DNA of 63,879 bases, filler included, from Reclinomonas americana ATCC 50394 (Eukaryota): the NCBI GenBank assembly GCA_048213135.1. It is 5 parts of 3 records of this genome, joined end to end, with 100 filler letters (N's around TTAATTAATTAA, not from the genome) between each part and the next. Parts side by side here need not be neighbours in the genome. Positions count along the whole stretch, not along the records: positions 1 to 26,746 come from PS015063.1; positions 26,847 to 48,942 come from PS015063.1; positions 49,043 to 57,702 come from PS015063.1; positions 57,803 to 61,644 come from PS015066.1; 1 more part is not named here. One strand, given 5' to 3'. The stretch's first letter is position 1; the number at the start of each line of letters is the position of its first letter. Made by a program: the position numbers and the translations under genes. Positions 1 to 61,239 of this stretch are shown in pieces. The notes beneath the pieces were generated by a model. The model was not told the DNA's origin. It was given only the letters and a program-made list of their open reading frames with translations, and did no database searches.

Positions 1-397
1 GTCAACGCGGCATCGTCCTCCACATACTCGGTCTCCAGCTCGTGCTCGAGTCGCTCGACTTCTGCCTTGCAGCGGTCCCGCGTGGCCGACAGCTCTCTGA
101 TGTCGGCCTGCTGGCGTTGCACGTCGGCGAGCTGTTTGGTGAGTGTCTTGGCCGACTGGCGCAAGGCCTCGATTTGATCCTGCACATTTGCAGTGAGCGT
201 CACTGAAAGGCGTGGGGACTTGGAGTTTTTCGCCGCACGCAACTGCATTGTCTCCGAGCTGCTGCGTAATGGTCTCGACGGTGACTTTTTCGCCCTGTAG
301 CTGGCGCGTCAGTTGCTCCTTGTGCTCGCGGTGTGTGCGCGTGACGGCCAGGTCGGTGTTGGCCACTTTCATCTCCTTGGTCATGTCGTCGGCGTGT
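1..397 (-). CDS. RAD50: RAD50 coiled-coil segment (two exons) in inverted orientation relative to the rest of the gene
   Basis: The minus strand spliced over a GT-AG intron (243..180) reads HADDMTKEMKVANTDLAVTRTHREHKEQL...GDNA|DQIEALRQ...EYVEDDAAL. Its last bases (ttg ac) join position 647 (g agc atc) in frame with the + strand RAD50 exon. Confidence 0.75.
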
Positions 398-646
398 NNN
401 NNNNNNNNNNNNNNNNNNNNNNNNNNNNNNNNNNNNNNNNNNNNNNNNNNNNNNNNNNNNNNNNNNNNNNNNNNNNNNNNNNNNNNNNNNNNNNNNNNNN
501 NNNNNNNNNNNNNNNNNNNNNNNNNNNNNNNNNNNNNNNNNNNNNNNNNNNNNNNNNNNNNNNNNNNNNNNNNNNNNNNNNNNNNNNNNNNNNNNNNNNN
601 NNNNNNNNNNNNNNNNNNNNNNNNNNNNNNNNNNNNNNNNNNNNNN

Positions 647-1151: not shown

Positions 1152-1206
<55 letters not shown>

Positions 1207-4035
1207 TCTCTCTCTCTCTCTCTGGTCTTCCCTGCACTCACAGAGTCTCCTCTCAGAACCGATCTCAATCAACCTCTGTTGCTTACTCCCTTCCCCCTTC
1301 CCCCTTTCCCCCCTTCCCTCTCACAGGAGGCCGAGTTCGACAACCACATGCGTGATCTCGCCATGCAACGCCACCTCAGCGACAAGCTCTCCCCGCTGCT
1401 GGAGCGCTCCTCCACCAGGTTGGTTGACTCTTTCTCTCTCGTCTTTTTCTTTGTTGGTAACTTTGACGCCAGTCGTGAGCAACTGCTGGCGGCCGTGCGC
1501 GAGCGCCTGGACGAATTGCGCAGCAAGGGCACCGAGCTGGTGGCCAAGAACCGCACCGACCTGACGCGCCTCAACGAGCAGATTCAACGCTGCGAGGTCG
1601 AGCTCAGCAGTCAGCGCGCCGTGCAGGGCCAGTTGAAGGAGCAGCAGGTTCCGTCATCACTTGTCTTCACCTCGCACTCTTCATCTCTTCCCATTCCCAC
1701 CTCTCTCCCTCTCTCTCTATCTTTCTGTCTCGCTTCCACTCACTCCTCCTTGTCGCAGCGAGTGGTCCGCGACCGTCTCTCTGCGCGCCAGTCCCAGATG
1801 CACTCCATCACCACATCGGAGCGGGCGTTGGAGGAGGCCAAGCGCATTCTCAAAACGCGCACAGAGGCCATTTGCACGGCCGATCAGCACTTGCAGGAGA
1901 GCAAAGTGGCGGAGCGGCGCGAACAGTTGCGCTCCCCGCGTTGCGCATCGCCTGTCACGCTCTCCGCTCACACACACGCACGCAACGCAGAATCACACAG
2001 CGTCAGGTCCAACTGCGCAAAAGCTTGCAGCAGCTGAACGACGAACTGCGAATGCGTGAGGAGGAACAGGAGCAGGGCATTCGCCTGAAGATGGAGCAGG
2101 AGCAAGCGGCCAGCCGGCAGGCACAGTTGCTGGAGCTGGAGCGAGAGTTCCGAGTTGCGTCACAGGGACTGTTTACTGATGCAGTTGCTGGTGTTGACCT
2201 TTCCGTGATCCTGCAGACCAAGGCCGCCACGCGCAATGTCCGAATCCGTGCCGACGACTTTATCACCAGCATCACCGATGCGGTGGCGCTGGCGACGCGG
2301 TCTCTGGGTGATGCGAATGCGGAGCTGACGGAGGTGCGGATTGAGGAGTAATAGGCGTAGACGAGAGTTCCTCTTTCTCTCCTCTCTCACCCCCTCCCCA
2401 CCCCCTTCCCCTCTCCGCAGGCCACCCGCAACTACACGCAAAAGGACATCATGCTCACCCGCGAGCGTGAGCAACTGGCGCGACTGCACGCGGAGCGCGA
2501 ACGCACCGCCGCCGAAATCCGCGAGGTGTGCCCCGATGGCGACGTGGAGTCCGCATGCAAGGCTGCCAGAGACAGCCTGGACAAGGCCAACAAGTTTCGT
2601 GTGCCTCTTTGCCGACGTGCAATGCATAGTACTCTTCCTCATTCTGTTCTGCAGGAAAAAGCTGAAGCTCGACATGCTCGAGTCGCAGAATGCCGCGTGG
2701 CGTGAGTCCGCCGACCACCACAACCGATGTGATGTGTGCCGGCGCGACTTTCATGGCGACGAAGAGAAAAAGGCGTTTGTCAGCAGGGTAAGTTTCCGAG
2801 GACAAGTGAGCGAGAGAGAGAGAGTCTTTGTATTCATCATTTCTCTTCTCTCTCACGCAGTGCACGTCGCGCATCGAAAAAGCGCCAAAGAAGCGAGAGG
2901 CGAACAGGGCTGCCGTGGCGCGAGAGGACGCGCGAGTGACAGCGCTGCAGCGGTTGCTGCCGCAGAGCGCAAGGGTGCGACCGCGCGCAGTATCCTTCTC
3001 CTTTTGCTGTTTCTCACCCTTCTCCTTGCGTCACGCAGCTGCACGAGATTGAGCAGGTCGACATTCCGCGCTGCACGTCGGCGGTCGACACGCTGGAGGA
3101 GGAGGTCGGAACACTGCGCCGTCAAGTCAACCGTCTCACCGACGTGCTGCAGGAATGCAAGGTATGTGGATTTGTTTGTATCGTTCCTCTCATCTCTCAC
3201 TCTCTGTCTCCTCGACAGTCTGTGTTCTCCGCCCCTCGCGCTCCACTTTTCTGATTTGGACCTTATGTATCCACTCCTGTCTTATTTCTTTCACTTTCTT
3301 TCTCTCTTGCCTTGATTCTCTCGCTTGCTTCCTTACTCCTCTCCATGTCCCTCATGCCAAGCTTCCCTCTGCTTTCTTTCTCTCTTGCCTTGCTTCTCTC
3401 GCTTACTTCCTTACTCCTCCCCATTTCCCTCATGTCAAGCTTCCCTCTTCCCCCTCGCTGTTCTCATTCAATGGTGCACAGGACCGCGTGGCCGGCGTTG
3501 AGTCTCTGCGAGCGGATGCAGTGCAACTGGAGGGCCTGCGGGCCGACGTCATTGTCGCCACGGAGAATGCCAGCAAGCTGCAGTCGCAGCTGAGTCGGTC
3601 GAGTGGATCGCGGTCGTATGACGAGCTGCAACGACAGCGCGATGAGTTGCAGGCTGAGAGGTTTGGTCGTGCGCGGTCAGAGCTTTCTCTTCCTCTCTCC
3701 TTCCTTCCTGACTCCTCGCCACAGTGACAAGCTGGCATTCGAGCTGCAGCAACTGCAGCAACGATACGACGGTCTCAACGCTGAGCTGCAGAACGCCACA
3801 CAGGCGGCGAGTGAGCAACGCGAGCGAGTGAATCAGCTGACGGCCGATTTCCAGCGCCTGAAGGAGTTGGAGGTGGAGGTGGAGCGCGATCAGCTGGAGC
3901 TGGACACACTCACGCGCAAATACGAGGAGAGCGAGGCGCGGTGTCAGCCGCTACAAGGAGACGTGCGCAAGCACACTGAGGTGCGGGGTGCTGCTGATGC
4001 TGTGAGGTCACATTTCGATCGTCACCAATCATCGC

Positions 4036-4079
<44 letters not shown>

Positions 4080-5904
4080 GAGCGCGACAGGAAGCAGCGC
4101 GAGAACGTGGCGAGTGAGCGCGAGGTGCAGCAAATGTACTCTGACGTTCAGAAAATGGAGGCCAAGACCAGCGCGCTGCTCGCCGATATTACCAGGTTGC
4201 GTGCCAGCGCCCGTTTCGCATTCTTTTTTCATCCCCTCATGTCTCTCTCTTCTCTCGCCAGTGTGCGAAAGCAATGCACTCCACAGTTGCTGGCCGACTC
4301 GGCGGCTCGTGTCGAGGAGCAGGGCGCCAAGTACGAGGCCTGCAAGGCCGAACTGACCAAGCTGACTGACGACATTGCCAACTGTCGTCAGCAGCTGAAC
4401 AGCAGCCAGTTGAACAAGGTGAGCTGTGGGCAGGAGCCGCCGTGATCCTTGTTTGCTGGTGTACCCTCACATTCTTCGCACAGCGCACCATCCACGACAC
4501 TCTTCTGTTGCGGAAGAAGAAGAGCGAGCAGGCCGAGTGCGAGGAGCGGCTGAAGTTGGCCACTGGCAAACTGCTGGCCACCAATGTCGACCGGCTCAAG
4601 TCGGATGTCGACGATGCGCAGCGGAAGCTGAGGGAGATGGAAAACAATGTTGCGTGTGTACGCCTGTGTTTCAGTACGCGCGACGTGGCCTCTCACTCCT
4701 TCAGTCTCTGTGTGCAGGCCGCTCAACTGGAGGGCATGCGTCTCGCCACGCAGCAGCACATTACGTCGCTTGAGCGCGACCTGATGGTCGAAAAGTACCG
4801 GTACGCCGACCGCAACTTCCGCAACACGCTCATCAAGGTGCGCACCATCGAGGTGGCGGTGCGTGACCTGGAAAAGTACCGCGCTGCGTTGGAGAAGGTA
4901 TGTCGCCTTCCATCTCTACTTTCATTTTTCTCTCATGCTCACTTATCTTTTTCCCCCCAAGGTGATGCGTGCGTACCACGCCAACAAGATGCGTGAGATC
5001 AACCAAATCATCCGCGAGTTGTGGCAAAAGACGTACAAGGGCACCGACATTGAGTACATTGAGATTGTGTCGGACGCCGAGGCCACTGGCGGCAACAAGC
5101 GCAACTCGTTCAATTACCGCGTGGTGATGCACCGCGGTGGCGCAGCACTGGACATGCGCGGTCGATGCAGTGCCGGTCAGAAAGTGCTGGCCAGTTTGAT
5201 CATTCGCCTGGCGCTGGCGCAGGCGTTTTGCATTCAGTGTGGCGTGATTGCGCTGGACGAGCCGACCACGAATTTGGATGCGGACAATGTGGCCAGTTTG
5301 GCCGATGCGCTGCAGGCGTTGCGTGTGAGGGCGAAGAGGAGGGAGAGGGGAGAGAGGAGGGAGAGAAAAGGGGAGAGGGAGAGGGGGGAGAGGGAGAGGG
5401 AGAGGGAGAGGGAGAGGGGAGGAGCAGAGGAGAGAGGAGAGGAAAATAATGAAGAGAGAAAGAGTGAAAGAGTGAAAGAGTGAAAGGGGAAGTGAAGAGA
5501 GGAAAGAGAGAGAGAGAGAAAGAAAGAAAGAAAGCCAAGGATAGCCAGAAGGAGAAAGAGACAGAGCGCTTTATTTCTTTTCTCGGAGCTCATGCATTCT
5601 TCGTGCCTGCAGTATTGTGCGCGACCGGCTTCACCAAGGTGTGTGCTGCGCGCCACGTTCTCGATGTTTCCGCGTACTTATGATACTCGACGCAGCCAAC
5701 TTCCAGCTGATTGTCATTACGCACGACGAGGGCTTTGTGCAGCGTCTCGGCCGATCAGAGTGTTGCGTTTTGGTTGACGTGAGGGATGCACGTCGATGGT
5801 CACCGTCTTACATTCACTGTGCAGTCATCGACTCGTACTATCGCGTGTCGCGTGATCCGGCCACTCAGCACTCGGTGATCGAGAGGCAGAACTTTATGAT
5901 ATAA
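647..5904 (+). CDS. RAD50: DNA repair protein RAD50 (N-terminus missing; about 18 exons here)
   Basis: Long coiled coil with zinc hook CDVC (~2728), signature [12 protein letters not shown], Walker B/D-loop [11 protein letters not shown] and H-loop [10 protein letters not shown]; stop TAA 5902-5904. Approximate exons: 647-821, 1327-1418, 1473-1647, 1759-1925, 1991-2333, 2421-2593, 2655-2787, 2861-2974, 3039-3161, 3482-3660, 3725-3980, 4080-4195, 4262-4418, 4484-4648, 4718-4897, 4962-5317, 5613-5638, 5696-5761, 5825-5904. Confidence 0.97.
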
Positions 5905-7719: not shown

Positions 7720-7809
<90 letters not shown>

Positions 7810-11029: not shown

Positions 11030-14000
11030 ATGGCGATAAGACACTTTCTCGTCCCGTTGTTCGTCCTCACTTTGTTTGCTGTGTTTGCCACGGGTGAGTG
11101 CACTGCTGAGCGTGTGAGAGAGTGAGAGAGACAAAGTGTGCTCACTGGTGCTTGTGCTGCAGCTGTGGCCTCGCGATGCTCCTCTGACGATCAGTGCAAT
11201 GCTCCTCATGGTGAGTTTCAGCAGACGCGGGTGGCAGGCAGAGTGATGGAGGAGAGGGAGAGAAGGAGAGAGAAGGAGAGAAGAGAGAGCAGGCTTGGGA
11301 CGAGGTCACTCCTCACCCTTCTCCTCATGTGCTTCTCCTCACACCCTTCTCCTCACACCCTTCTCCTCACACCCTTCTCCTCACACCCTTCTCCCCACAC
11401 CCTTCTCCCCACACCCTTCTCCCCACACCCTTCTCCCCACACCCTTCTCCCCACACCCTTCTCCCCACACCCTTCTCCTCACACCCTTCTCCCCACACCC
11501 TTCTCCTCACACCCTTCTCCTCACACCCTTCTCCTCACACCCTTCTCCTCACACCCTTCTCCTCACGCCCTTCTCCTCATACCCTTCTCCCCACACCCTT
11601 CTCCTCACGCCCTTCTCCTCACGCCCTTCTCCTCATACCCTTCTCCTCATACCCTTCCCCCACCCTCCTTCTCCTTACACCCCCCAGGTCGCTGTGTCGA
11701 CGGCATGTGCATGTGCACCAACCGCCTGGTCGGCGGCGAATCGTGCGAGTGCCACCCCGACATGACACACACGTGCCACTCGTACCCCTCGATCTACGCC
11801 GTGCCGACGGGCGATGGCACGCAAATGTGCGTCGACCTGGCCACCTGCATCAAGGCCAAGGGCGTGCTGATTGTGCCCGGCGAGCAACCGCCACCGCCGG
11901 TGGTGAAGGCTGCTGCGACTCCGACGTGCTCCTCCAACTCGCACTGCAATTACCCGTACGGCTCGTGTGTCGATGGGTGAGTTTCTTCACTCTTCCTCGC
12001 CCTGCTTCACTCTTATTTCTCATCGCCCTTTTCGTTTGCAGTGCATGCCGATGCCTCGGTCACCTTGTCGGTGGTGTGCACTGCCAGTGCCGCCCGACCA
12101 CGGATCCCACGCTGCGTTGCATGCGGCAGCCGGATGTGTACTCGGTGGCCGGCGTGTGCTCTGATCTGGCCGACTGTGTGGCGTGGACGGAGCGTGGTGT
12201 GTTGCCGGCGGCCATTCGTCCGCTTGACCCGTCGCGTGGAGAGGCGTGCTTGATCAACACCGACTGCGGTGCTCATGGTGCGTATGTGTGTGAGTTGCCT
12301 TCACACCCGCTTCCAACTTTCTCTAATCTCTCTTCCCCGACAGGCACGTGCAACAAGGATACTCGGTGAGTCCCCCCACATTACCTTCTCCATTTCGCCC
12401 CTCCCCCTGCTGACTCCTTTTGTGTTGCTGCGCAGCAAATGCATCTGCAACAACGCATCTGTTGGCGGCCGCCAGTGCGGGTGTGTTCCCGACGCGTCGA
12501 CCTGCCCCTCGGCACCGTCGTCGTACTTTGTGGCCGGAGAGTGTGTCTCGCTGCGCGAGTGCATCGCCACCAGGGATCCGCACCTGCATGTGGCCGACAT
12601 GGCGCCGACGCTGCTGCAAGTGCGCGTGACCGGTGTGACCACCACCGAGTTCAATCCGCTCGACGCCGTGGTGGTGTTTGAGTTGACAACGGGTGGCGGG
12701 TTCCGTGTGCCGGCCGCGTTCCCGGCCGGCGGCTACTCGCTCATCAACTACGGCGCCGGTGACTTGAGCATGGAGCCGGTGCACCGCGTGGAGTTGCCCG
12801 ACGCGCTCAGCGAGACCGAGGCCAGTTTCTCGAATGTGCTGGTGTCGGGTCGCAACCTGCTCGTCTTCTCCTACATGGACACGTTTGGTCGCCCGATTGT
12901 GCACCACACCACGGTCTGGGGCGGCACCAACACGGTCACGGTGCAGCTGGTGGTCGGCAGCGACGGCAAGGAGCTGTTTAATGAGTCCGCGCACGTGACG
13001 GTGACCATGTTTGACGAGAGCAGCATCACGGTCGGTCCGCTGCTGGTGACGACCGGCACGGTCACGGTGCACAATGTGCCGTCCACCAACATGTCGATTT
13101 ATGCCGAGTCGGCGACTGGTGGCGGCGTGTCGGGTCACTATGGTGGCGTGCCACGCAGCACCATGCAGGTGCGCATGTTGGGCTACCAGCAGCCGAGCAC
13201 CGAGGACAACAACAACTTGTCGCGCGCCGACATTGCTGGCTGGACGCCTTCGTCGCACGCGGCCGTGGCGGTTGCGGCGCACGTGGAGCTGTCGGACGAG
13301 CTGCCGCCGGACGGCATTGTTCGCCGCCACCCGCACGCCAGTCTGAGTGACATGCGTCGCGAGCGCTCCGAGGCGCACGCGGCGATTGGACCCATGCCTG
13401 CCATGCCGAGCCATCACGCCGACCACTACGACACGCACCTTGACCTGGACCTGATGGCCAACACCAACTACGACGTGCACCTGTCGACCAGCTCGAGCTT
13501 CTCGGAGCAGACGCTCACGCGCGCCTTTGTGACCAAGCCGAAGACCACCTCGGTGCAAGTGCGCTACCGCTTTGTGACGCTCGAGTACACCTCGTTCTTC
13601 GGCACCGCCTTCAACGACTACTATCGCGTCCAGCTGCGCTCGCACCGCAACGACGACGAGGTGGTGGACAGTCGCAGCCTGAACTCGCTCGGCGCCTCGG
13701 CCTTCTCGGTGGCCCGTTTGCGCGACTCGGTCTTTGTCGGCTACACGTCGTGGATGGTGCTGGAGTTGCCGGTGGCTGGTGGCGACGCCGTGCAGCTCGA
13801 CGTGACGGTGTCGAACGTGTCGGACAACCTGTACGATTCGCGGGTGGAGATCGACTATGTGCGCGAAANNNNNNNNNNNNNNNNNNNNNNNNNNNNNNNN
13901 NNNNNNNNNNNNNNNNNNNNNNNNNNNNNNNNNNNNNNNNNNNNNNNNNNNNNNNNNNNNNNNNNNNNNNNNNNNNNNNNNNNNNNNNNNNNNNNNNNNN

Positions 14001-16057
14001 NNNNNNNNNNNNNNNNNNNNNNNNNNNNNNNNNNNNNNNNNNNNNNNNNNNNNNNNNNNNNNNNNNNNNNNNNNNNNNNNNNNNNNNNNNNNNNNNNNNN
14101 NNNNNNNNNNNNNNNNNNNNNNNNNNNNNNNNNNNNNNNNNNNNNNNNNNNNNNNNNNNNNNNNNNNNNNNNNNNNNNNNNNNNNNNNNNNNNNNNNNNN
14201 NNNNNNNNNNNNNNNNNNNNNNNNNNNNNNNNNNNNNNNNNNNNNNNNNNNNNNNNNNNNNNNNNNNNNNNNNNNNNNNNNNNNNNNNNNNNNNNNNNNN
14301 NNNNNNNNNNNNNNNNNNNNNNNNNNNNNNNNNNNNNNNNNNNNNNNNNNNNNNNNNNNNNNNNNNNNNNNNNNNNNNNNNNNNNNNNNNNNNNNNNNNN
14401 NNNNNNNNNNNNNNNNNNNNNNNNNNNNNNNNNNNNNNNNNNNNNNNNNNNNNNNNNNNNNNNNNNNNNNNNNNNNNNNNNNNNNNNNNNNNNNNNNNNN
14501 NNNNNNNNNNNNNNNNNNNNNNNNNNNNNNNGGTCGTACTGCAGCAGCGAAATCATCGTGGCGGCCTCCGTGTTCAGCACATCGTTCGCTCCATTGGCCG
14601 TCACCGACGGTGTGGCGAGCACACGGCGTGCGGTGGCCGCCTGCATGGCGGCCGCACGGAACACGTCAATCACTTGCTGGCCGGCCTCCGAGTACAGCGA
14701 CATTTGCTCGGCAATGTTGCGACCGACGCACGTGAGGTCCTCGCACATGCCGACCAGCGCCATGTACATGACCTCGACCTGCTGCGCCGGCGTGCGGGCC
14801 GTGCTGACCACGGTCGCCATCGGCACACCCACCACACGCAGGGCGTCGCGCACCACATCCAGCGCACTCGGCCACGCATACAGCACGTGCGGATTGGCCG
14901 CCGGTCCCAGCTCCACCGTCACATCGGCAATCGAGTGGCGCAGCGCATGCAGCGAGCCGCAAGCCACGGCAGTGAGACCGACCACTGACGCCGAACCCGG
15001 GGTCACACGCAAGCGGGCGGGGTCGTTGACGGCCAGCACCAGTGGCGTCGACTCGGCGTACGTACCCGCCGGCACCATCAGGGTGGCCAGCGGCGCCGTG
15101 CCTGCCAACTGATCGCGATCCGTGGACCAGAACAAATTAATGTGCTCGTCCTCGTCGAGAATCGTCGGCTCGCCAGGGCGCGTGTACGCCGTCAGTTGCA
15201 GGCCACCAGTCACGGCGTCCCACTTGAGCGTCGACACGGAGATCGGGCAAGAGATNNNNNNNNNNNNNNNNNNNNNNNNNNNNNNNNNNNNNNNNNNNNN
15301 NNNNNNNNNNNNNNNNNNNNNNNNNNNNNNNNNNNNNNNNNNNNNNNNNNNNNNNNNNNNNNNNNNNNNNNNNNNNNNNNNNNNNNNNNNNNNNNNNNNN
15401 NNNNNNNNNNNNNNNNNNNNNNNNNNNNNNNNNNNNNNNNNNNNNNNNNNNNNNNNNNNNNNNNNNNNNNNNNNNNNNNNNNNNNNNNNNNNNNNNNNNN
15501 NNNNNNNNNNNNNNNNNNNNNNNNNNNNNNNNNNNNNNNNNNNNNNNNNNNNNNNNNNNNNNNNNNNNNNNNNNNNNNNNNNNNNNNNNNNNNNNNNNNN
15601 NNNNNNNNNNNNNNNNNNNNNNNNNNNNNNNNNNNNNNNNNNNNNNNNNNNNNNNNNNNNNNNNNNNNNNNNNNNNNNNNNNNNNNNNNNNNNNNNNNNN
15701 NNNNNNNNNNNNNNNNNNNNNNNNNNNNNNNNNNNNNNNNNNNNNNNNNNNNNNNNNNNNNNNNNNNNNNNNNNNNNNNNNNNNNNNNNNNNNNNNNNNN
15801 NNNNNNNNNNNNNNNNNNNNNNNNNNNNNNNNNNNNNNNAGTCGGCGCCGATTCGCGAGGCCATGCTGGCGCGTGTGATGGCCGTCGGCCCGCAGGAGGT
15901 GTCGCGCCAGTGCGCCGACCCGGCCACGACGCTGGTGTTCTCCGTGTCGGACGCGGTCGGCTTGCGCTGGATGCAGGAGGCGCAGCTCGACCTGCGCGTG
16001 TCGTTTGTGTCGGCCGATCGCTTCTCCGGCACCTTTGTGGTTCGCATGGAGCGGTGA
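11030..16057 (+). CDS. Secreted protein: signal peptide, three Cys-rich EGF-like repeats, long intronless beta-rich region, C-terminal peptidase-like region
   Basis: ATG 11030 MAIRHFLVPLFVLTLFAVFA (signal-like). Exons 11030-11093, 11163-11210, 11688-11976, 12042-12277, 12344-12365, 12436-13868, then the inverted piece 15254-14532, then 15840-16057 (stop TGA). Repeats of the type CSSxxxCNxPxGxCVDGxCxCxxxLVGGxxCxC. Confidence 0.8.
11331..11660. repeat. 14-bp minisatellite (cacacccttctcc[t/c])n, intronic
   Basis: Directly visible tandem units inside intron 11211-11687. Confidence 0.95.
14532..15255 (-). CDS. Internal coding segment of the 11030-16057 gene, in inverted orientation
   Basis: Open minus-strand frame ISCPISVSTLKWD...STARTPAQQVEVMY...ISLLQYD joins in frame to 13868 (gaa a + atc, 1-nt overlap) and to 15840 (gac c + ag tcg gcg). 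Confidence 0.8.
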
Positions 16058-16648: not shown

Positions 16649-17236
16649 ATGATCAACGAGGAAGATGACGCTCGCCGCTCTCTTCTCGCACACGCCACCT
16701 CCACAGTGTCCACACCCACACACCTTCAGGCACCAGCATCGCCTTCTTCCAACCACTATGGATCCATGACATTCTCTGCTCCTCGACAACAACAGCAAGC
16801 AGCAGCTGGTCCTGTTGATCAGAGCGCGCCTGAGAATGTGTGCTTGGTGCGGAATCCGTTGCATCGAATGTTGATGATTGTGGCGAGGCGAGTGGAGGCA
16901 GATGATGTTGCAGAGGATGATGACGATGAGGAGGAGGAGGAGGGCATTGTGAGAGGGCAGGCTTTGTCGGGATTGATTCTCGAGGGCGAGCTCCCGGTGC
17001 AGTCGGTGCCGCAGTGGACAGTTGAGTGGGGGACAGGGAGGGGAGGGGGCGCAGGGAAANNNNNNNNNNNNNNNNNNNNNNNNNNNNNNNNNNNNNNNNN
17101 NNNNNNNNNNNNNNNNNNNNNNNNNNNNNNNNNNNNNNNNNNNNNNNNNNNNNNNNNNNNNNNNGGGGGGACGAGGAGAAAGTTGTCTTTCTTGTCTTTC
17201 ATGGAGGTATTTGTGAGCAGCAGGCAGCAGCGTGTG

Positions 17237-17276: not shown

Positions 17277-20200
17277 ACAGAGAGAGCGAGTCAAAGCTCT
17301 CCAATACTGCTCAAGATTGGCATCGTTGAAGAGAAGGCAGAGAAATGCAATGAGTATGTTGTCTTCAGAGTCTGTGACAGCGGGAAGCTGTCCAAGTTCT
17401 GTGAACGATTGCCAGCGGCAAGCGATGACAAGAGAGCACAGGGAGAGGCATGAACCGAGAAGGGAGACAGAGACGCAGTAAGTGCGAGTTGTCTTCANNN
17501 NNNNNNNNNNNNNNNNNNNNNNNNNNNNNNNNNNNNNNNNNNNNNNNNNNNNNNNNNNNNNNNNNNNNNNNNNNNNNNNNNNNNNNNNNNNNNNNNNNNN
17601 NNNNNNNNNNNNNNNNNNNNNNNNNNNNNNNNNNNNNNNNNNNNNNNNNNNNNNNNNNNNNNNNNNNNNNNNNNNNNNNNNNNNNNNNNNNNNNNNNNNN
17701 NNNNNNNNNNNNNNNNNNNNNNNNNNNNNNNNNNNNNNNNNNNNNNNNNNNNNNNNNNNNNNNNNNNNNNNNNNNNNNNNNNNNNNNNNNNNNNNNNNNN
17801 NNNNNNNNNNNNNNNNNNNNNNNNNNNNNNNNNNNNNNNNNNNNNNNNNNNNNNNNNNNNNNNNNNNNNNNNNNNNNNNNNNNNNNNNNNNNNNNNNNNN
17901 NNNNNNNNNNNNNNNNNNNNNNNNNNNNNNNNNNNNNNNNNNNNNNNNNNNNNNNNNNNNNNNNNNNNNNNNNNNNNNNNNNNNNNNNNNNNNNNNNNNN
18001 NNNNNNNNNNNNNNNNNNNNNNNNNNNNNNNNNNNNNNNNNNNNNNNNNNNNNNNNNNNNNNNNNNNNNNNNNNNNNNNNNNNNNNNNNNNNNNNNNNNN
18101 NNNNNNNNNNNNNNNNNNNNNNNNNNNNNNNNNNNNNNNNNNNNNNNNNNNNNNNNNNNNNNNNNNNNNNNNNNNNNNNNNNNNNNNNNNNNNNNNNNNN
18201 NNNNNNNNNNNNNNNNNNGAGTGTGAGACAGCCAAGTGCTGTGTTTGTCGTCCCTCCTCCGAGTTCCGAGATTGCAAGTGTTGAGAAGAGAGCACAGAGA
18301 GATTTTCTTCACGACATGTTGATTCCAATGCAATGCGGTGGAGCGAAGGCTACGTGTGCTTCGCCGCGCGTGGGCCGAATAAGCGTCTTTCGTGTCACCA
18401 TGACTTTCCGCGTCAACTCTGCATGAGCAGCTGTCCTTCCGCTGTCTCCCTTCTCATTCCGTCTGCCCTTCTCTTTCTTCTTCGTCTCCAGGAGAGATCC
18501 GCTGCTGTCGGCACCATGCTTTGCGATGAGGAGCCGTCTGCGGAGACTGCCACCGCCGATGAAGGATATCCGCTCGAGTTGCGTCTCGCCGGACTTGTGT
18601 GCCCTTTGTCATGACTGGGACTCACTTCATCGCACAGAACGGTGCAACATCCTGGCTTTCCGTTCGGGTGGGATCTGGAGGTGGAAGAAGGAAGGCGGAG
18701 ACCGCGGCCGCCTCACTTGCGATTCACAGCGACCAATGTCACGCGGATCGTGTACGCGTACGTGGTGATTGGCCTGGTGACGGCGCAGTTTGTGTTTGGC
18801 GTGTGGTCCATTGTGGTGTTGTGGGACTATTCGCGTGCATGGGCCGGTTCGGTGCGTAGCGTGAAGTGCCATCTGTTCGTCATCCTATCGTGAACATTGA
18901 TCCTGGTGGCAGACGCTGGCGCTCTTGCTTTTGTCGCTGCTCTGGGTCTCCACCTTCAACACCATTGTCGTGTCGATGGAGGAGCATAGGAATCGGTGAG
19001 GGCATTGCTGCATTTCTCTCCGTCATCTTCGCTGCTCATCGCCTAGAGGGCAGACCTCCACCGTCGGGTTGCCGACAATGCTGTTCGCGTTTTATCTTGT
19101 ACCTTTGTAGCTGCTGCGGTGCGTTTGTTGTTCACACGCCCGTGTGGTGTATGCTACTACTTATACATTTGCGCTGCAGTGGTGCCTGGAATCATCTATT
19201 CTGTGCTTCGCTTGGATGTGTTTCGCCCGAATCGGCACTTGGATCCGGTGAGGCAACCCGCAGTCGGTCATTCTCGTCTCTCGCTTGAGGCTGACTGCTG
19301 TGCACAGGTCAATCCCGACCGCATCGAAACTCCACTCCTGCTTCCACTGGTGGTGTTGTATTTTGCTTTTCCTTGCGCCATTATGTTGCGTCTGTGAGCC
19401 TCTTCTTCTTCTTCTCATGCATACAGTCTCCCACGTCGCGCCTCTGCAGTTACATGCACGCCGTGATTGTCAGCCAGTACGACGAGCACTGGGTGCCAAG
19501 TGCGTTGCTCATCTGCTCCGTGGTGTTGACTCACTTTGGCTCCATGTCCTGGCAACGCAACATTTATGGAGCGGACTGTTGCGTCCTCACCGTCCCTGTT
19601 TCGTTTTACGCACTTGCGTCTCACCTGATGGGTGCAGTGGGCAAGGAATTGCGCCCGCTTCCGGCCGCCAAGTTTGCCGCAGTTTTCGTTCTGACGTTGT
19701 GCGTTACGTGCTCATGTGTGTACGACAAAGTCGTCAGCTTTCTTCGTCTCACTCTGTGAGTTGCGGAAGGCCGTTGACTGTCTTTGGATTCTTCCATTAC
19801 GGAATCTTCGCCGCTGTGTTTGGCCAGAAGCTGCTATGGGTGCTCATCGGTCTCGAGGTGACTTCGCTTGCTTCTGTTTCCCCGTCCGACTGCCTCCTAC
19901 TGCCGCTCATGATCGAGGGCGCCAACAGGCAGCCACCATCACCATGAGCTACCTTGTTGCAGCGGGCTATGACCGCGGTGCTGCATTCGTCTGTGCAATC
20001 ATCGCAGGCGCACTGCCGACCATGTACCTGATGCTGACCGGTCAAGTGTACCACGGCTACCGCCTGGTTACGGTCAGTGTCCTTGTGGCCTCCCCCCCGG
20101 TCCCATTTCCTTCATCGTTTCGCGACTCATGATACGTGCTATGGCTGCTCAGCAAGAATACTGGAGGACCAGAAAGGGTAGCTTAATTGGATGCACGTTC

Positions 20201-20392
20201 ATCGCAATGTTGGTGTACACTTCGTGGTCCGTGTCGTCGTGGCTGTCGCTCCATCTGTGGAGCTCCTCCGATCGCCACTTGCAATACTATGAGTGGTATC
20301 AGTACGGATGGATCGTGCTGATGGCGCTCGCACCTGTGAGCTTCGTTGTGCAGGCGTTTGGTATCCCTCGAGATGGATACGAAGATGCCTGA
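16649..20392 (+). CDS. Multipass membrane protein of unrecognised family, paralogue A
   Basis: Acidic N-terminus then many hydrophobic segments; motifs WSIVVLWDYSRAWAGS, YMHAVIVSQYDEHW and FGFFHYGIFAAVFGQKL shared with paralogues B and C; stop TGA 20390-20392; internal gaps. Confidence 0.75.
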
Positions 20393-20450
20393 GGAGATTC
20401 ATTCATAAACACCGTAACTGATTTTACATTTCATTAGCTTCCGAGTCACT

Positions 20451-23400: not shown

Positions 23401-24131
23401 GAGAGAGGGGAACAACGGAAAAGTGAGCGGCGCATGACAGTATACGGCAAGCGGAGCAGAGCAACGACGCACTGGAGAGAGTAGTTGCTCATGCGCAATC
23501 GCGATGGCTCGTCGGCATGAGTCATGCGGCCAAGCGCCACATCGCAAGCGACACCCGTCTGTGAGAACGGCAAGGTAAGAGAGAGGGAGAGAGAGAACGA
23601 TAAGGAAGAGAAGCGAGGAGAAAGAGATCACGCGAATGGAGCAAGGACACGACGACCATTCCAATATCAAACGAGGAATGAAACGTGAGAAGACAGCCAA
23701 GAAGACACACAGCAGACGTGGAATGACAGCAAAGAAGCACAGGGAGACAGATGACGAGATTTCAAACGAGGGCATGAAATCACAATCGTTGTGAGAAAGC
23801 ACGCAACAGACGCGGAATGAAGCATAGAAACAGAATACGGAGACAGATTCAAACGAGGGCAATGAAACGTGCACAATACAGAAACAGAGAAACACACGAA
23901 GACAGATGTCGGGATTTCGAACGAGGTCAATGGATCATGAGAAGACTACCTCGAAGACAAGCACCAGACGCGAAATGACAGCACAGAAGTATAGAATCGC
24001 ACAAAGTGAGACCGATGACACATGGAACGAAACTGCATGACAAATGCAAAAATAGCGACAGCGAGGTAAAATAAGCACAAGGCCCTCTCCATCGTCTCTC
24101 TCTCTTTCTCTCTCTCTCACAAGACACACAG

Positions 24132-24164
<33 letters not shown>

Positions 24165-24766
24165 CTTCTCTCTCTCCCGCTCTCTCTCTCTCCCCTCCCC
24201 ACCCCACTCTCTCTCTCCGAAGACGCAACTTCCGCCACCTGCGCAGGCGACGGCAACTCGCCCTGCACGAGCACCACAGGCTGCGCCACCGGCACACTCG
24301 CCCACACTGGTCGCAAACTCACCTCTCCCCCACCCATCGCCTCCTCATGCTCCACGCCCATCAAATGCCAATGCCACCACACAGCGTGCGGCAATAGCGA
24401 CCAGGCGAACTGACGCAGCATGATATCCTCGTCGTTATCCAACATTATCTGTCGCATCGCAGGCGTATCGCGGAACGGATTCGTCGCCAGTGGAATGTAC
24501 TCGTCGCCGCTCGATATGTGCACGATATCTCCCATTTGCACGTGGATATCATCGACTTCTTGTGTCTCCTCCTCCTCCTCCTCCTCCTGCTTGGCATTGG
24601 CGTTTCCATTGTTGCTGCTGTCGCTGGTGGAGGTGTCGTCGGTGTTGATTGAGGGTGAGAGGGTGAGAGTGGCAGTTGCGCGTGCAGGCATCTCGACCAA
24701 GGCGAGTGCGGGTGGTGGTGTCGCAGCGCGAGGGACCATGGTGATGGTGCGCGATCGTCGCGTCAT
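20451..24766 (-). CDS. Multipass membrane protein of unrecognised family, paralogue B
   Basis: Motifs WSIVVLWNFNRAWAGS, YMHVVIVSQYQEHW and FGFFHIGIFAAVFGQKLW; N-terminal GELP motif as in A; convergent with A. Start codon uncertain. Confidence 0.75.
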
Positions 24767-24874
24767 GTGGCGATCGCGCACAGAGGGGGGAAGAGAGACG
24801 AGGCTGGCGACGGGACATCGTGATTGGGACACAATCAATGCGACGTTGTCGTTCTACGCCCATTGGCATCGACA

Positions 24875-26570: not shown

Positions 26571-26671
26571 AGAGGGATAGAAGAGAAGGAGGACGAAGAA
26601 GAATAAGAAAGAGGGAAGCTTCTCGCAAAGAAGAACGCACACGGCAAGAGGAACTGAGTTGGATGAGGACC

Positions 26672-26734
<63 letters not shown>

Positions 26735-26746
26735 GGTCCTACACAC

Positions 26747-26846
26747 NNNNNNNNNNNNNNNNNNNNNNNNNNNNNNNNNNNNNNNNNNNNTTAATTAATT
26801 AANNNNNNNNNNNNNNNNNNNNNNNNNNNNNNNNNNNNNNNNNNNN
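26747..26846. other. Artificial scaffold linker N44-TTAATTAATTAA-N44
   Basis: All-frame-stop 12-mer at 26791-26802 inside N runs; the same construct occurs four times. Confidence 0.97.
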
Positions 26847-48942: not shown

Positions 48943-49042
48943 NNNNNNNNNNNNNNNNNNNNNNNNNNNNNNNNNNNNNNNNNNNNTTAATTAATTAANN
49001 NNNNNNNNNNNNNNNNNNNNNNNNNNNNNNNNNNNNNNNNNN
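48943..49042. other. Artificial scaffold linker
   Basis: TTAATTAATTAA at 48987-48998 within N runs. Confidence 0.97.
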
Positions 49043-49944: not shown

Positions 49945-50006
<62 letters not shown>

Positions 50007-52650: not shown

Positions 52651-52683
<33 letters not shown>

Positions 52684-55187
52684 NNNNNNNNNNNNNNNNN
52701 NNNGCGTGCCCACGGCGTAAATGTCGTGCTCGCCAGGCACAATAAACGGGGCCAGCACATCGGGTGGTTGCTGGGGAGTGGAGATGATGAGACAAAGAAT
52801 AGGATGAATGAGAGCAACTTCCACGAACAAACCTTGCCATGCATATTCCACGTCCCCACAAACACAAACACATGGTTCGGAAACACTGGGCCCTCGGCAA
52901 ACGGCTGCACGGCGGCGGCGGCCTCCGGTGTGTCGGCAAACGCGGTAATGTGCAGGGGCAGAGGTCGCGGTGAGTTGGCCACGGCTTCAGCCTCGGCGTC
53001 GAGAAAGGTGCCGGAGACATCCACCGAGGAGCGCTTTTGAGCCAGGATAGAGATGGTGGGGCGTGAACGGGCACTCGTGCTGTGAAGCATGTGGGAGTGA
53101 GGAGAGAAGAGTGAAGAGAGATCAAAGGACAAGGCACTCAAACGCACCTGGTCCCCACAGTTTCCGCAACACCTGGAACATCATCGCCGTCGTCGTCGTC
53201 GCCGTCTCCATCAACAGATGCCACAGCTGCTGCGGCCGCGGATGGGAGGAGGATATCGCTGCCGCTGTCGGTGCTTCGCGAGCCTTCGCGTTGCAGCTGC
53301 GGCGATGGCGGGTCATCATCAGTTTGAGAAGTGATGATTGAGGGAGAGAGAGACGCACAGGCTTTGGTGGAGACATTGCCGAGTCAGTGTCGGAAGAGGC
53401 ACTGTGAGATCCTGAGGGCGCGGGCTGTTGGGAAATTCGGGGTAAGGGCGAGACGACACAGCAGGGATGTTACAGGCAAGACGAAACCGGTGGTGGCAGC
53501 GACGAGTGCAATGGAGGGACAGCCTGCAGGAGGGACACGGAGTCAGCAAAGGACGAGGCAGAGTTGCGCAGCATCGCATGAGACTCACTGCTGGTGATTC
53601 TTCTGTGCGCACTGTGGTCTGCGCAGAGGGAGGAAGCGGTGAGCGGTGACCACACTCAATAGCGAGGGATGACGGCGGAACCTGTGGTGGTGAGCTAGGC
53701 AGCGACTGGCGCGGTTCCGCAGCAGGCTGCATGGTGAATGAGTGAGGGAGGGGAAATACCAAGTGCAGACAACGCATGTGCTCACCGAGTGTGTTTCGAC
53801 GGCGGGGGGAGAGTGGCCCTGAGAGGGAGCACGAAAGTTGAGACAACTTGGCAAGTGACAGGATGCTGCACGTGGAGTGCGCACCGAGGGTGATCCAGCG
53901 GCGGGTGCAGAGTGAACCTGCAAGCGAAAGAGTGAGATATCGCTGCAGGTCAGTGCAACTAAATTTTTTTGCTCACCGAGTGTGTTTCGCCGGCGGGTGG
54001 CGGGTGACCCTGACAGGGAGAATGAAAGATGAGAAACTGCGACGATCGAGAAACAAACCGCAAAAATGGAGAACGCACCGAGGGTGATCCGGCGGCAGCA
54101 GGTGCATGTGTCTGCTGCGGAATGTATGTGTGAGACAGACGCGATGGGGGAACGACATCGCAATCAATGCGCACCGGATGCGATTCGGCAGGTGGCGAGT
54201 GACCCTGAGAGATGGCGAGATGACGTTGAGTGTACAATACAGGGAAGAAGCGAACGCAATACGGTGCACACCGAGTGAGATTCAACGGCGGGTGGCGAGT
54301 GAATCTGCAAAGAGACAAGCGCTGAGATCACGCGGCCGTCAGGGGCCAAACTGCAAGCGACCTCACCGGCAGTGACTCGGCGGCAGGAGGCGCATGAACC
54401 TGAAGGAGAGGACGCTGAGTACACTGAACAGGCAAGAGTTGAATCACAATTGCAGCTCACCGAGTGAGATTCAATGGGTGGCGAGTGACCCTGCAGTGAG
54501 ACATGAATATGAGACTAGGATACCGTCTGGGGCACACAGCAAGTTTCGTCACCGAGTGAGACTCGACAGTGGGTGGCGAATGGCTCTGCGAAAGATGACG
54601 TTGAGCACGCGATGCAAGTGAGCATCGAGTTGCAATCAATTCTCACCGAGTGCGATTCGGCGGCGGGTGGCGTATGTGTCTGCGTGGAGAGAGGGAGAGA
54701 AAGCGATAGAGTGAGACGGATGCTACGGGAGAGCCAAACAGCATGTCGAGCGCACCGGATGCGATTCGGCGGATGGTGAGTGACTCTGCAACAGAACGGC
54801 ACATGAGACTACCTTGCCATATGTGGGAAGAGAGAGAGCAAGCTTCCTCACCGAGTGTGATTTGACGGCAGGTGGCGAGAGACTCTGTGGAGCGCAAGGC
54901 GAGTCAAAACAACAGTTTTCACAAGAACAAGCGCAACGGCGGACAACTCACCGACGGAGCCGCCGCCGCCAACGCGCCAGATGAATCGCTCTGCATCGAA
55001 GCGGGATGAGTAAACACAACGCACTTGCTACCTTCCCGCTGAACGGCGGCATTCGTCTTCACCTGCGGCTGCTGCGCACAGAGAATACAAGTGAGTGCGC
55101 TTGCAGGATCGAACACGAAACGAACGCACGACAACGTACCAGCGGTGCAGTTGCGATAGGCGGCAACGCATTCACAGCGGGCTGCAT
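51220..55187 (-). CDS. INPP5E: Inositol polyphosphate 5-phosphatase, INPP5E-like, with Pro-rich microexon-encoded N-terminus and C-terminal CaaX (CALL)
   Basis: VFVGTWNMHG, VTQRFDRVFWCGDLNYRI, FPPTYKFD, YDSSSK|RRIPSWTDRVLF, SSDHRPV and terminal RACALL*. Middle exons hidden by the gap at 52684-52703; start codon uncertain; subfamily assignment from remembered motifs. Confidence 0.85.
53786..54884 (-). repeat. Array of 12 related phase-0 microexons (30 or 33 nt) separated by 59-76-nt introns
   Basis: Each unit is flanked by CAG| and |GTG on the minus strand: 54852-54884, 54756-54785, 54647-54679, 54553-54585, 54461-54490, 54367-54399, 54272-54304, 54175-54204, 54079-54111, 53977-54009, 53885-53917, 53786-53818. 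Confidence 0.88.
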
Positions 55188-55410: not shown

Positions 55411-55446
<36 letters not shown>

Positions 55447-57530: not shown

Positions 57531-57624
<94 letters not shown>

Positions 57625-57659
57625 CTACTACTACTCTCTACTCTCTCTTCCTACTCTTC

Positions 57660-57691
<32 letters not shown>

Positions 57692-57702
57692 GTCTACGTC
57701 TA

Positions 57703-57802
57703 NNNNNNNNNNNNNNNNNNNNNNNNNNNNNNNNNNNNNNNNNNNNTTAATTAATTAANNNNNNNNNNNNNNNNNNNNNNNNNNNNNNNNNNNNNNNNNN
57801 NN
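57703..57802. other. Artificial scaffold linker
   Basis: TTAATTAATTAA at 57747-57758 within N runs. Confidence 0.97.
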
Positions 57803-58424: not shown

Positions 58425-58773
58425 GCACACCTTCGCCGTGTCGACGTCTACTAAATACCTTGCAAGGTCTGCGCGTTAACGTTGACCACAGACCGGAGTC
58501 GGTCTCCGACATGATCTGGACCTTTTTTGCAAGCAGCACTCATGATCAGTGGGCAACATGCACGCACGGCAAGTCGCGATCGGCAATATCGACAATCGCA
58601 ATATCGGCATGGCTAGACGGCGCAGCACGAAGGTGGGGTGTGCACGTAGCTGGCAACATGCACATGCATTCATGTTCCGGCGCACAACTGCGCTCACTTC
58701 AGAGACCGCAACTTCGTTATCCCACACAAATCGTCCTGCTGCATTTCCCGTCCCGCCCTTCCCTCTCCCCACC

Positions 58774-61239
58774 ATGTCGCTCGTCAACGCCCTCCTCCAA
58801 GGCATCTTCATCGACGAGAACTTCCTCATTCTCATGGCCATCAGCGCCTCCGCGCCTCTCATCTGGAACCTCCTCGCGCGCGCACAGTACAGCTTCGACG
58901 CCCTCTCGCGTCTCTGCTGCGGACACCGCACTCTCGCCAATGTCCTCCTCGCCGCCTGGATCTTTGGATACTCGGGATACAGGGACTTGGTGTTGCGCAT
59001 GAGCAGAGAGAGAGAGAGAGTAAGTGCGTCACACCAAAGTGTGTGACATGTCGTCGTGTTGCAGGTTCTTCCGTGATGTGGAACTGTGGCCGCGCTCTGC
59101 GTTGTTGGATAATGATGTGTCGCGTGTGGCGGCTATTGTGTTGTTTGCGCTCGGCAGTCTGTTTGTGTATACCTCCATTGGACAGCTGGGATTTGTTGCG
59201 TGGCGCTGATGCAGTAGTGTGCATGTGCTCCTTTCTCTCTCTCTCATGCACTCCGCGTGTCTCACTGTTGTTGCATATCATCCTCTGCGCTTCTCTCTTT
59301 CTTCTTCCACTCTCCTCCTCACCTTCTTCATCCTACTGATGTCTGCCTGTCTGTCTCTCTTCTCTCTTTCCTCAACTCTTTTCTCTCTCTCTTTTCATCC
59401 TTCTACTTCTCCTCCTCCTCCTCCTCGCCTTCATCCTCTCTCTCTCTCTCACATGCATTCACACTTTTCTTGTGTGTCTCCTTCATGTCTTCCTCTGGGC
59501 TTCACTCTCATTTCTTCTTCTTCCTCCTCCTCTTCATCCTCTCGCTCTCTCCTTGTGTCTTACTGTAGTCTGCCTGCCAATCTCTTCTCTCATGCTCCTT
59601 CCCTTCTACTCTATCCTTCTCTGTCCTCGCTTCTGTTTTCCCTCTCTCTCTCTCACTCACTCTCTCTCGCTCACTCTCTCCTTGTGTCTCACTTCTCTCA
59701 TTCCTTGCTCCTTCTCAGTCTCTCCCCTTGCTCTCTCTCTCTCTTTCACTCACGCACTCTCTCCTTGTGTTTCACTGTTGTCTGCTTGTCTGTCTCTCTT
59801 CTCTCTTTCCCTGCCCCTTCCCTTCTATCCTACCCTTCTCCGTCCTCGCTTCTGCCTTCCCTTTCTCTCTCACTCACTCTCTCCTTGTGCCTTACTGTTA
59901 TCTGCTTGTCTGTCTCACGTCTCTCCTTTCTCAACTCTACACTCTCTCTTTCTCATTTCTTCCTCATCCTCCTCCTCCTCGCCTGCATCCTCTCTCTCCC
60001 TCTCTCACGCACACATTCACTCTCTCCTTGTGTCTCATTGTTGTCTGCCTGCGTGTCTCTCTTCTCTCATTCCTTGCTCCTTCTCCTCCTCTCCTTCTTC
60101 TTCGTCTCCTTCTGCCTCTTCCTCCTTCTCTTCTGTATCATCTCCTCCTCCTCTCCTGTCTCTGTCTTGAGCTCACTGGTGTGTTGGTTGCAGTACGGCA
60201 CGTGGTTGGGCGACTACTTTGGCTTCCTGCAGCCGTCACGCGTGACATCATTCCCGTTCAACGTGCTCGATGTGAGTTACGAGGGAGAAAGAGCTGGGGA
60301 GGGTTACATGACGCCTGCTGCTGTGCATGACGCGGTATTGAGATACTCTGTGGTTCACGTATCATGCATGTCACTGTGAGAGTGAGCGAGCGTGCTTCTC
60401 GAGAGCAGAGCATAATGTTCACACCTCACTTTTGATACTTTGAGAACCTGCGCAATCCCATGTATTTCGTCGGATCGACGCGTGCGTACAGGACGCGTTA
60501 TATCTGTCGCATTCTCGATCCATCGTTCTACTTGTTGTGCACTTTGACAGCTTATGGTTGCGTGAGGGTCAGAGACCGCGACCACAGCATTTCACGAAGA
60601 CCTGCTTTCTCGTCCTCATGTTATCACATGAGAACAGAGCAGAGATAACATCTCAGCCTGCACTGCCGTCAGCCTGCACTGCCGTGGCTACGTTGAGAAC
60701 TTTCACAATTCCTTGTTTGCTCGATGTGCTTGTATTTGTGTGTCAAGCCTAACCAGACAGATGCTTGCTTTCTGGTCTATCGTATGTTTCCGTTTATCAT
60801 CTTTTGTCACTGCGTGGGAGCAGCGCAGAGCGTTACACATCTCGCGCTGCATGCAAAATTTATGATCCTTTCAATCCCAAGTTCGTCAGTTTCTCTACTT
60901 AGATCGCATGAAGCACTCACCCTTCCCCTCCCCTCCCCTCCCCTCCCCTCCCCTCCCCTCCCCTCCCCTTCCCCCTCCCCCTTCCCCTCCCCCCTCCCTC
61001 CCCCCTCCCCCTCCCCTTCCTCTCTCCCGCAGAACCCCATGTACGTCGGCAGCTCCATGTGCTTCCTCGGCCACGCCCTCTGGGAGCGCAGCCTGAACGG
61101 CGTCATGATGTCCGTGTGGATCTTCCTCGTCTACCGCATCGCGCTGCTCTTCGAGGAGCCGTACACGGCGGAGATCTACGCGCGCGTGGAGCGCCTGAAG
61201 CTCGGTGGCCAGCGCAAGAGTGTCAACTCGACCGAGTAG
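58774..61239 (+). CDS. PEMT: Phospholipid N-methyltransferase (PEMT/OPI3 family)
   Basis: PLIWNLLARAQY, LGF|YGTWLGDYFGFL, RVTSFPFNVLD|NPMYVGSS and ALLFEEPYTAEIY. Exons 58774-58991, 59065-59194, 60194-60271, 61033-61239. Confidence 0.96.

Follow-up and report, generated by a model that had tools for sequence, protein, structure and literature searches.

Few positions of eukaryotic introns are as well conserved as the G at +5, owing to its pairing with U1 as well as with U6. In the shifted register of human 5' splice sites (donors), complementarity to U1 is better when moved by one base, the +1 G lies opposite C9 of U1 and the exon ends in CA. In the bulge +2/+3 register, the exon end and the GU pair normally, one U is bulged and normal pairing then resumes. 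Here, the donors in a stretch of nuclear DNA of Reclinomonas americana ATCC 50394 (assembly GCA_048213135.1) are compared with such systems; the whole stretch of 63,879 bases is called the window in the following. An initial annotation of this DNA had noticed that many introns begin with GTTGCG(T) and had described this start as the usual donor plus one extra T. It had explained the start by routine bulged or shifted-register recognition or by variant U1/U6 RNAs, an interpretation that is partly supported by the present analysis. According to our gene models and alignments, GTTGCG(T) represents a second donor class of ordinary GT-AG introns that is both genuine and abundant and opens about 18% of the modelled introns. 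If the variants GTTYCGT, GTTTGGT and GTTGGTT are included, the share is about a quarter.

According to excerpts of Tan et al. (2016, PMC4856993), both the shifted and the bulge +2/+3 register are proven in human cells; the first is credited there to Roca and Krainer (2009) and the second to Roca et al. (2012). All validated non-canonical registers comprise 1.5% of 201,541 human sites, and for bulge +2/+3 there are 68 predicted or 54 curated sites (excerpts of PMC4856993). The donors of the window resemble these sites in having GU, one extra base and then the part that pairs with U1, with the cut at the first GU. The +1 G is proposed here to replace the exon-end G, as it does in the shifted register. 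In contrast, such sites are rare in human cells, whereas GTTGCG starts 9 of 51 to 15 of 82 introns of the window, with a nearly fixed heptamer and GC at +4/+5.

Modified U1 sequences are described in excerpts of a preprint (bioRxiv 10.1101/2022.06.08.495308). The U1 of Entamoeba has the sequence AACAAAC, to which GUUUGUU corresponds, one consensus that serves 88-90% of the introns. Mastigamoeba U1 reads ACGUAC, beside GUGCGC donors, and Physarum is said to hold standard as well as modified U1 variants (bioRxiv 10.1101/2022.06.08.495308). The Entamoeba donor, as far as excerpted, resembles GTTGCGT in that +3 is U, the seventh position is a conserved U and standard U1 does not fit. It differs in that G and U keep +5 and +6 and that a change of U1 is shown; in the window, G and U are moved by one base and ordinary donors occur in the same genes. 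For Mamiellales, Mastigamoeba and Thecamonas, GUGCGY donors with a preference for C at +4 are reported (excerpts of bioRxiv 10.1101/2022.06.08.495308). The ordinary class of the window is likewise often GTGCG(T/G), and GTTGCGT shares the GCGT core; the extra U was not found in the excerpted descriptions of these donors.

U12-type introns are also a minority class with a long, nearly fixed motif on the intron side of the 5' end and no exon-side consensus. Their motif is RTATCCTT; branch and acceptor of the GTTGCG class resemble those of ordinary introns here. A U12-type reading was rejected by the donor letters, which are GTTGCGT and not RTATCCTT. In a literature search with the motif as text, none of the matches listed was a paper in which GTTGCGT or GUUGCGU is named as a consensus for splicing; figures giving a consensus as a logo only would escape such a search.

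Materials and methods

Genes were predicted with a self-written dynamic-programming gene finder, in which codon log-odds against background are combined with an acceptor score (pyrimidine content and the base before AG). An earlier version without acceptor score was dropped because of its drift into antisense and low-complexity "genes". In the model-free pass all GT were treated as equal donors, GC was allowed with a penalty and no donor matrix was used. Four training rounds, with the higher-scoring strand kept for each locus, resulted in 29 genes with 88 introns. The 51 introns of at most 150 nt and free of N were taken as the short-intron set. The model-free set is unbiased yet noisy; for example, GTCAGC at 2779 was taken where GTAAGT at 2788 is correct. 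Furthermore, this pass overlooked a 26-nt micro-exon of RAD50 and read through two in-frame candidate introns. For the second pass, the results of the first were used to train a donor matrix with two classes, so that the frequencies of the second pass are partly circular. This pass contains 82 introns and reproduces the structures of RAD50 and PEMT obtained by homology.

Proteins were aligned to the genome with a self-written aligner, which demands only GT/GC...AG and uses no donor matrix. Duplex energies were calculated with ViennaRNA against the standard 5' end of U1, a general motif which may not be that of the organism itself.

Donor classes and position of the cut

The initial annotation listed 20 sites, and at all 20 positions the reported letters are present on the reported strand. 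The heptamer GTTGCGT occurs 27 times on both strands, compared with 7.2 occurrences expected under a uniform model, and the hexamer GTTGCG 64 times. The donors of the 51 short model-free introns are GTTGCG in nine cases, another GTT in nine and GT followed by A, C or G in 33, with GTTGCG as the commonest single hexamer. As a null, 11 of the 1348 GT sites in predicted coding sequence (0.8%) are GTTGCG, compared with the 9/51 introns (binomial p=3.6e-10). GTT as such starts 18/51 short introns and makes up 18.9% of the GT sites in predicted coding sequence (p=0.006). With the second pass, 27 of 82 introns start with GTT and 15 with GTTGCG; in the RAD50 model of this pass, GTT starts 8 of 17 introns. 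The 64 GTTGCG occurrences are distributed over 15 modelled donors, 10 sense exon, 8 sense intron and 17 antisense positions and 14 positions outside models. Thirteen of the 27 heptamers are donors in the second pass, three more (19578, 21456, 26293) are supported by paralogs, and only three lie antisense to a gene model.

The model-free pass recovered 14 of the 20 listed sites and missed 5318, 19385, 19578, 26451, 53487 and 59195. Four of these six (5318, 59195, 19385 and 19578) were rescued by alignment of homologs or paralogs. Altogether, the listing as intron starts is upheld for 16 sites. It is not for 17021 and 24229, which were obtained only with long or N-holding introns, nor for 26451 and 53487, which none of the models contains. 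Ordinary donors are present in the same genes, as had been annotated; the gene models contain GTGCGG, GTAAGT, GTATGT, GTGAGC and GTGTGT.

Each GTTGCGT contains a second GT at +6, and cutting there adds 5 nt and shifts the frame. Four GTTGCG sites were fixed as intron starts, in agreement with the annotation, by spliced alignment with homologs of RAD50 and PEMT. For RAD50 intron 5318-5612 (phase 2), the donor GTTGCGT at 5318-5324 (+) was chosen by five of six homolog alignments. The micro-exon of 26 nt (5613-5638) follows directly, and the join is ungapped over 17 residues; the sixth homolog gave a false micro-exon made from a GA-rich stretch. The donor GTTGCGT at 5762-5768 (+) of RAD50 intron 5762-5824 (63 nt, phase 1) was selected by all six homologs and by the model-free pass. 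Removal of this intron yields RLGRSE-FIDSYYRV, and 42 residues of the joined RAD50 protein were aligned gap-free to the homolog. In PEMT, GTTGCGT at 59195-59201 (+) was taken by 11 of 12 homologs as the donor of intron 59195-60193 (999 nt, phase 0), the removal of which yields QLGF/YGTWLGDYFG. The donor GTTGCGC at 58992-58998 (+) of PEMT intron 58992-59064 (73 nt, phase 2) was obtained with 7 of 12 homologs and in the model-free pass. Two of the other alignments took 59028, one a GC donor, and two started downstream.

Open frames by themselves do not discriminate the two cuts in this GC-rich DNA. The downstream coding score, calculated with the best-scoring acceptors, is positive for the cut at +1 and negative for that at +6 at 11 sites (4196, 5762, 19385, 34923, 35129, 4649, 2594, 1648, 3661, 18578 and 37106).

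Further evidence comes from a multi-pass membrane protein with three tandem paralogs at 18300-26746, of which A is on the plus strand and CB and E are on the minus strand. They share the conserved blocks IWSIVVLW..RAWAGS, YMHVVIVSQY.EHW and PLPVFGFFH.GIFAAVFGQK; their open frames, as far as scanned, matched no Pfam family. In paralog A, GTTGCGT at 19385-19391 (+) starts intron 19385-19449 (65 nt, phase 2) in the second pass, with scores of +6.7 for the +1 cut and -1.4 for the +6 cut. Spliced alignment of the paralog A protein placed the donor GTTGCGT at 26287-26293 (-), which the initial list did not hold, at the same position and phase of paralog E (intron 26293 to 26230, 64 nt, phase 2; join ...SLI-L-YMHVVIVSQYDRHW). 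A second GTTGCGT of paralog A at 19578-19584 (+) opens intron 19578-19637 (60 nt, phase 1). It follows from the exon chain 19450-19577 / 19638-19698 / 19761-19858, which is open and connects two blocks conserved among the paralogs, and paralog CB has the same phase at 21584.

In paralog CB, two donors GTTGCGT are fixed by one three-exon chain. These are 21578-21584 (-) for intron 21584 to 21518 (67 nt, phase 1) and 21450-21456 (-), new compared with the initial list, for intron 21456 to 21062, which includes a run of 20 N. The chain YMH...TPSG / VFNEATPKRLIKWAILFIVT / LPLPVFGFFH... is open only if both sites are cut at +1. With cuts at +6 the chain is closed and the conserved blocks land in different frames. 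The middle exon has 61 nt in paralogs A and CB alike.

At one intron position and phase the three paralogs carry three donors. Paralog A has the ordinary GTGCGT at 19699-19704 (+; intron 19699-19760), CB has GTTGCGT (21456) and E has GTTGGTT at 25874-25880 (-; intron 25880 to 25798, 83 nt, phase 2, from the spliced alignment of the paralog A protein). This position agrees with the annotated "usual donor plus one T" and, as far as paralogous sequences can tell, is the cleanest support for reading the T as an extra base. A look-alike, GTTCG/GTGCGT at 18847/18852, is read by us at the downstream GTGCGT, which is favoured by the conservation of AWAGS among the paralogs. Therefore, not all GTTNNGT are cut at the first GT. 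For the junction of exons 3 and 4 of paralog A (18996/19110), no in-frame join was reached by hand.

The annotated C at +5 with GT at +6/+7 was confirmed as a property of the class, since +6G+7T is present in 10 of 18 GTT donors compared with 1 of 33 others (model-free pass, p=3e-5). The exon ends in G at only one of nine GTTGCG donors, compared with 15 of 18 ordinary donors with +5 G (model-free, p=0.0006). The second pass gave 2/15 and 30/42, respectively (p=0.00015). GC precedes the G in 9 of 12 GTT..G donors and in 3 of 18 ordinary ones (model-free, p=0.002). GTTGAGT, GTTAAGT and GTTATGT are rare or absent, while GTGAGT and GTATGT are common. The GTTGCGT heptamer is nearly invariant, whereas ordinary donors are degenerate.

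The introns have the features of the U2-type GT-AG kind: they run from GT to AG, their removal restores frame and homology, and they have a pyrimidine tract, a YAG acceptor and a loose branch motif. By eye, CTCAC- or CTGAC-like branch motifs were seen ahead of CAG in the intron tails of both classes. The median length is 64 nt for the GTTGCG class and 68 nt for ordinary introns (model-free).

Reading of the donor by the spliceosome

The commonest ordinary donor of the genome is GTGCGT. Judged by its letters, GTTGCGT is this donor with one extra U after the GU, cut at the first GT, and the two forms would interconvert through a one-base indel within the intron. We infer, with a probability of about 0.5, that the standard spliceosome reads GTTGCGT with the register displaced by one nucleotide. 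GCGU at +4 to +7 would take the usual place of +3 to +6 on U1 and later on the ACAGA box of U6. The extra U would remain unpaired, and the +1 G would occupy the usual seat of the exon-end G. With the +1 G as its stand-in, the class would therefore need no G at -1. The missing -1 G is predicted by a one-base shift, but not by a bulge with normal exon pairing. Together with the GC preference, it does not fit a plain tolerated bulge on standard U1. For CA/GUUGCGU, the predicted duplex is that of the register shifted by one base (-2.4 kcal/mol).

Several observations weigh against the shifted register. Pairing of GUUGCGU with standard U1 is weak, with -0.9 to -2.4 kcal/mol when the exon does not end in AG; with an AG exon end it reaches -5.9, and ordinary donors range from -6.4 to -10.7 kcal/mol. 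The shift predicts an exon ending in CA, yet this was found for only 3 of 15 GTTGCG donors of the second pass, in which the -1 base is A in six, T in five, G in two and C in two. GC before the G is preferred (9/12 compared with 3/18), although GA would pair better with standard U1. A register shift leaves the GC preference and the weak pairing unexplained, and a variant or second U1 matching GUUGCGU would explain both. The pyrimidine tract is somewhat weaker: the fraction of pyrimidines at -25 to -4 is 0.59-0.62 in GTTGCG introns and 0.69-0.73 in ordinary ones (0.59 and 0.69, respectively, in the model-free pass), values that lean high because the acceptor score itself favoured pyrimidines. 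In addition, the scope is one 64-kb window with self-built gene models.

A dedicated or co-evolved small nuclear RNA (snRNA) is a possible, though somewhat unlikely, alternative. In that case a second U1 or U1-like snRNA with a 5' end complementary to GUUGCGU would act beside a standard U1 for AG/GURNGU. The nearly invariant heptamer, set against degenerate ordinary donors, is in favour of such a molecule, as are the GC preference at +4/+5 (9/12 against 3/18), the lack of an exon-side consensus (-1 G in 1/9 against 15/18) and the poor pairing to standard U1. The U1 sequences of Entamoeba, Mastigamoeba and Physarum are precedents, as far as excerpted (bioRxiv 10.1101/2022.06.08.495308). On the other hand, an Rfam search of the 64-kb window gave no family match and no snRNA gene, and the later U6 step would still require a bulge. 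Easy replacement of GTGCGT by GTTGCGT, or the reverse, at a single intron position is also simpler if one machinery serves both. The more specific proposal of two parallel donor readers in the major spliceosome, in which a standard U1 is accompanied by another U1-type snRNA whose 5' end resembles ACGCAAC, we regard as doubtful. If it were true, GUUGCGU introns would hold all information on the intron side, and U1 and U11 would be joined by a third type of donor reader.

Even when taken together, misplaced junctions, introners and assembly errors are improbable. Cutting of the real introns at the +6 GT (GTTGC/GTNNNN, with GTTGC as coding sequence) or at a nearby ordinary donor appears very improbable. 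It is true that the second GT is often a good donor, as with GTGAGT at 34928 and GTGCGG at 238(-), that the look-alike 18847/18852 is read at its downstream GTGCGT, and that an in-frame alternative exists at 4649. However, the five extra nucleotides break the frame, homologs pick the first GT at 5318, 5762, 59195 and 58992, the CB chain is closed by +6 cuts, and the coding scores favour +1 at 11 sites. Common descent from a mobile element with a GTTGCGT end, instead of a recognition class, would also produce a shared start. This is suggested by CGCAAC, the reverse complement of the start, 10 nt before the end of the 1926 intron and by the clustering of lengths at 56-73 nt. Against this, the interiors gave a mean local-alignment score of 7.2 for 11 GTTGCG introns and 8.2 for 32 ordinary ones, the inverted copy is present in only one of 11, and ordinary introns have equal lengths. 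The introner reading was rejected: the interiors are no more alike than those of ordinary introns and the inverted motif is found in 1/11, so the introns are hardly copies of a mobile intron. A surplus T, wrongly called behind the GT of donors that are really GTGCGT, would suit a draft assembly with 22 N runs and linker joins, and an extra intronic base disturbs no frame. Nevertheless, random errors would not strike one position in about one fifth of the donors and at the same time leave over 3 kb of coding sequence of RAD50 in frame. The class differs at -1 and +4/+5 as well, and this explanation has next to no probability.

If about one fifth of the introns have C at +5 and the G/U one base downstream, splicing in a non-canonical register would be routine and not limited to a few dozen sites as in human cells. 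The window would offer a natural system for asking how U1 can pass these donors on to U6 while the cut stays in place, whether snRNAs evolve in concert with an intron sub-class, and how a one-base indel switches an intron between two recognition modes. Furthermore, genes with GTTGCGT introns will be annotated wrongly by gene finders whose training set consists of ordinary donors.

Further donor sites and gene content of the window

Additional donors of the class were placed by the gene models. GTTGCGT at 237-243 (-) opens intron 243 to 180 (64 nt) in the model-free and the second pass. Both passes gave three more such RAD50 introns on the plus strand: 1926-1990 (65 nt) with GTTGCGC at 1926-1932, 4196-4261 (66 nt) with GTTGCGT at 4196-4202 and 4649-4717 (69 nt) with GTTGCGT at 4649-4655. 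The scores at 4196 are +7.3 for +1 and -5.6 for +6. The coding score also supports 4649, for which the in-frame alternative is GTGTGT at 4654 with an acceptor 13 nt upstream. Intron 34923-34985 starts with GTTGCGT at 34923-34929 (+) in both passes and scores +5.2 for +1 and -8.2 for +6, despite the GTGAGT at +6. GTTGCGT at 35129-35135 (+), intron 35129-35184 (56 nt), is supported by both passes and the coding score. Two plus-strand donors GTTGCGT were not part of the initial list. That at 18578-18584 belongs to intron 18578-18729 (152 nt) of the models (+11.8 for +1, -2.9 for +6), and that at 37106-37112 to intron 37106-37165 (60 nt) of both passes (+5.8 and -7.0, respectively).

Three variant donors on the plus strand of RAD50 were obtained in both passes and by coding score. 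They are GTTCCGT at 1648-1654 (intron 1648-1758), GTTTCGT at 2594-2600 (intron 2594-2654) and GTTTGGT at 3661-3667 (intron 3661-3724). A competitor of the second, the pairing 2601/2661, requires a poor acceptor. The two in-frame candidate introns read through by the models also lie in RAD50 (+). The candidate GTTGCGT...CCTGCAG at 2154-2216 (63 nt) is divisible by three and stop-free, so that the frame cannot decide. The candidate GTTGGTT...GCCAG at 1419-1472 (54 nt) is stop-free as well and, if retained, would contribute a hydrophobic peptide of 17 residues within the coiled coil.

For the four listed sites which were not upheld, the following was found. GTTGAGT at 17021-17027 (+) was modelled only with a 348-nt intron containing an N run. 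GTTGCGT at 24223-24229 (-) was modelled only with a 671-nt intron, and its downstream coding scores are negative. GTTGCGT at 26445-26451 (-) lies outside the models, and the paralog alignment took another junction. GTTTCGT at 53481-53487 (-) is outside the models, too; one acceptor (+258) gives a positive coding score.

RAD50 intron 2975-3038 (+) has two possible starts, both in frame. The start at 2990, taken in the model-free pass, reads GTATCCTT with U12-type consensus; the ordinary GTGCGA 15 nt upstream was taken in the second pass (2975). GTTTGT donors were seen at 42005(-), 50456(+) and 52832(-). They have U at +3/+4 and G/U in the normal places, corresponding to an Entamoeba-type consensus.

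The window is eukaryotic nuclear DNA with a GC content of 56% of the non-N bases and 22 runs of N. Four identical joins at 26747-26846, 48943-49042, 57703-57802 and 61645-61744 consist of 44 N, TTAATTAATTAA and 44 N, the TTAATTAATTAA linker giving stops in six frames. Hence, five or more contigs or scaffolds are joined in the window, and genes may be interrupted at the joins, for example those of the TLDc and CUE proteins. Microsatellites flank most of the four joins.

A Pfam scan of long open frames identified RAD50 (about 1300-5900, +), phosphatidylserine decarboxylase (33351-34121, +) and PEMT (58774-61239, +). SAP18 (+), a TLDc protein (+), an inositol 5-phosphatase (-), a CUE protein (-) and a P450 (-) were also found. 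The most conserved RAD50 exon has at most 74% identity to any entry of the protein collection, and the best identity of the phosphatidylserine decarboxylase is at most 53%. The 74% match of RAD50 is a transcriptome record, and its accession prefix also appears in a paper on deep-branching heteroloboseids. For PEMT, a protein atlas returned broad clusters only. At 59195-61032 (+), PEMT has introns of 999 and 761 nt, compared with the typical 60-70 nt, and another GTTGCGT is situated at 60557 within the second of these long introns.

A coiled-coil reading frame at 3-384 (-) adjoins the N run 398-646 and lies upstream of the RAD50 coiled coil, where the ATPase head of RAD50 was not seen. This region may be a small contig in wrong orientation. 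The region 11208-15112 (+) encodes a large protein in which Cys-rich modules (C.DG.C.C...LVGG..C.C) recur; for the exon of 538 amino acids of this protein no relative at E<=0.001 was obtained among the candidates scored. The predicted proteins of the whole window contain long runs of T, P, A and Q, and its commonest heptamers are those of long (CT)n and (GT)n microsatellites.

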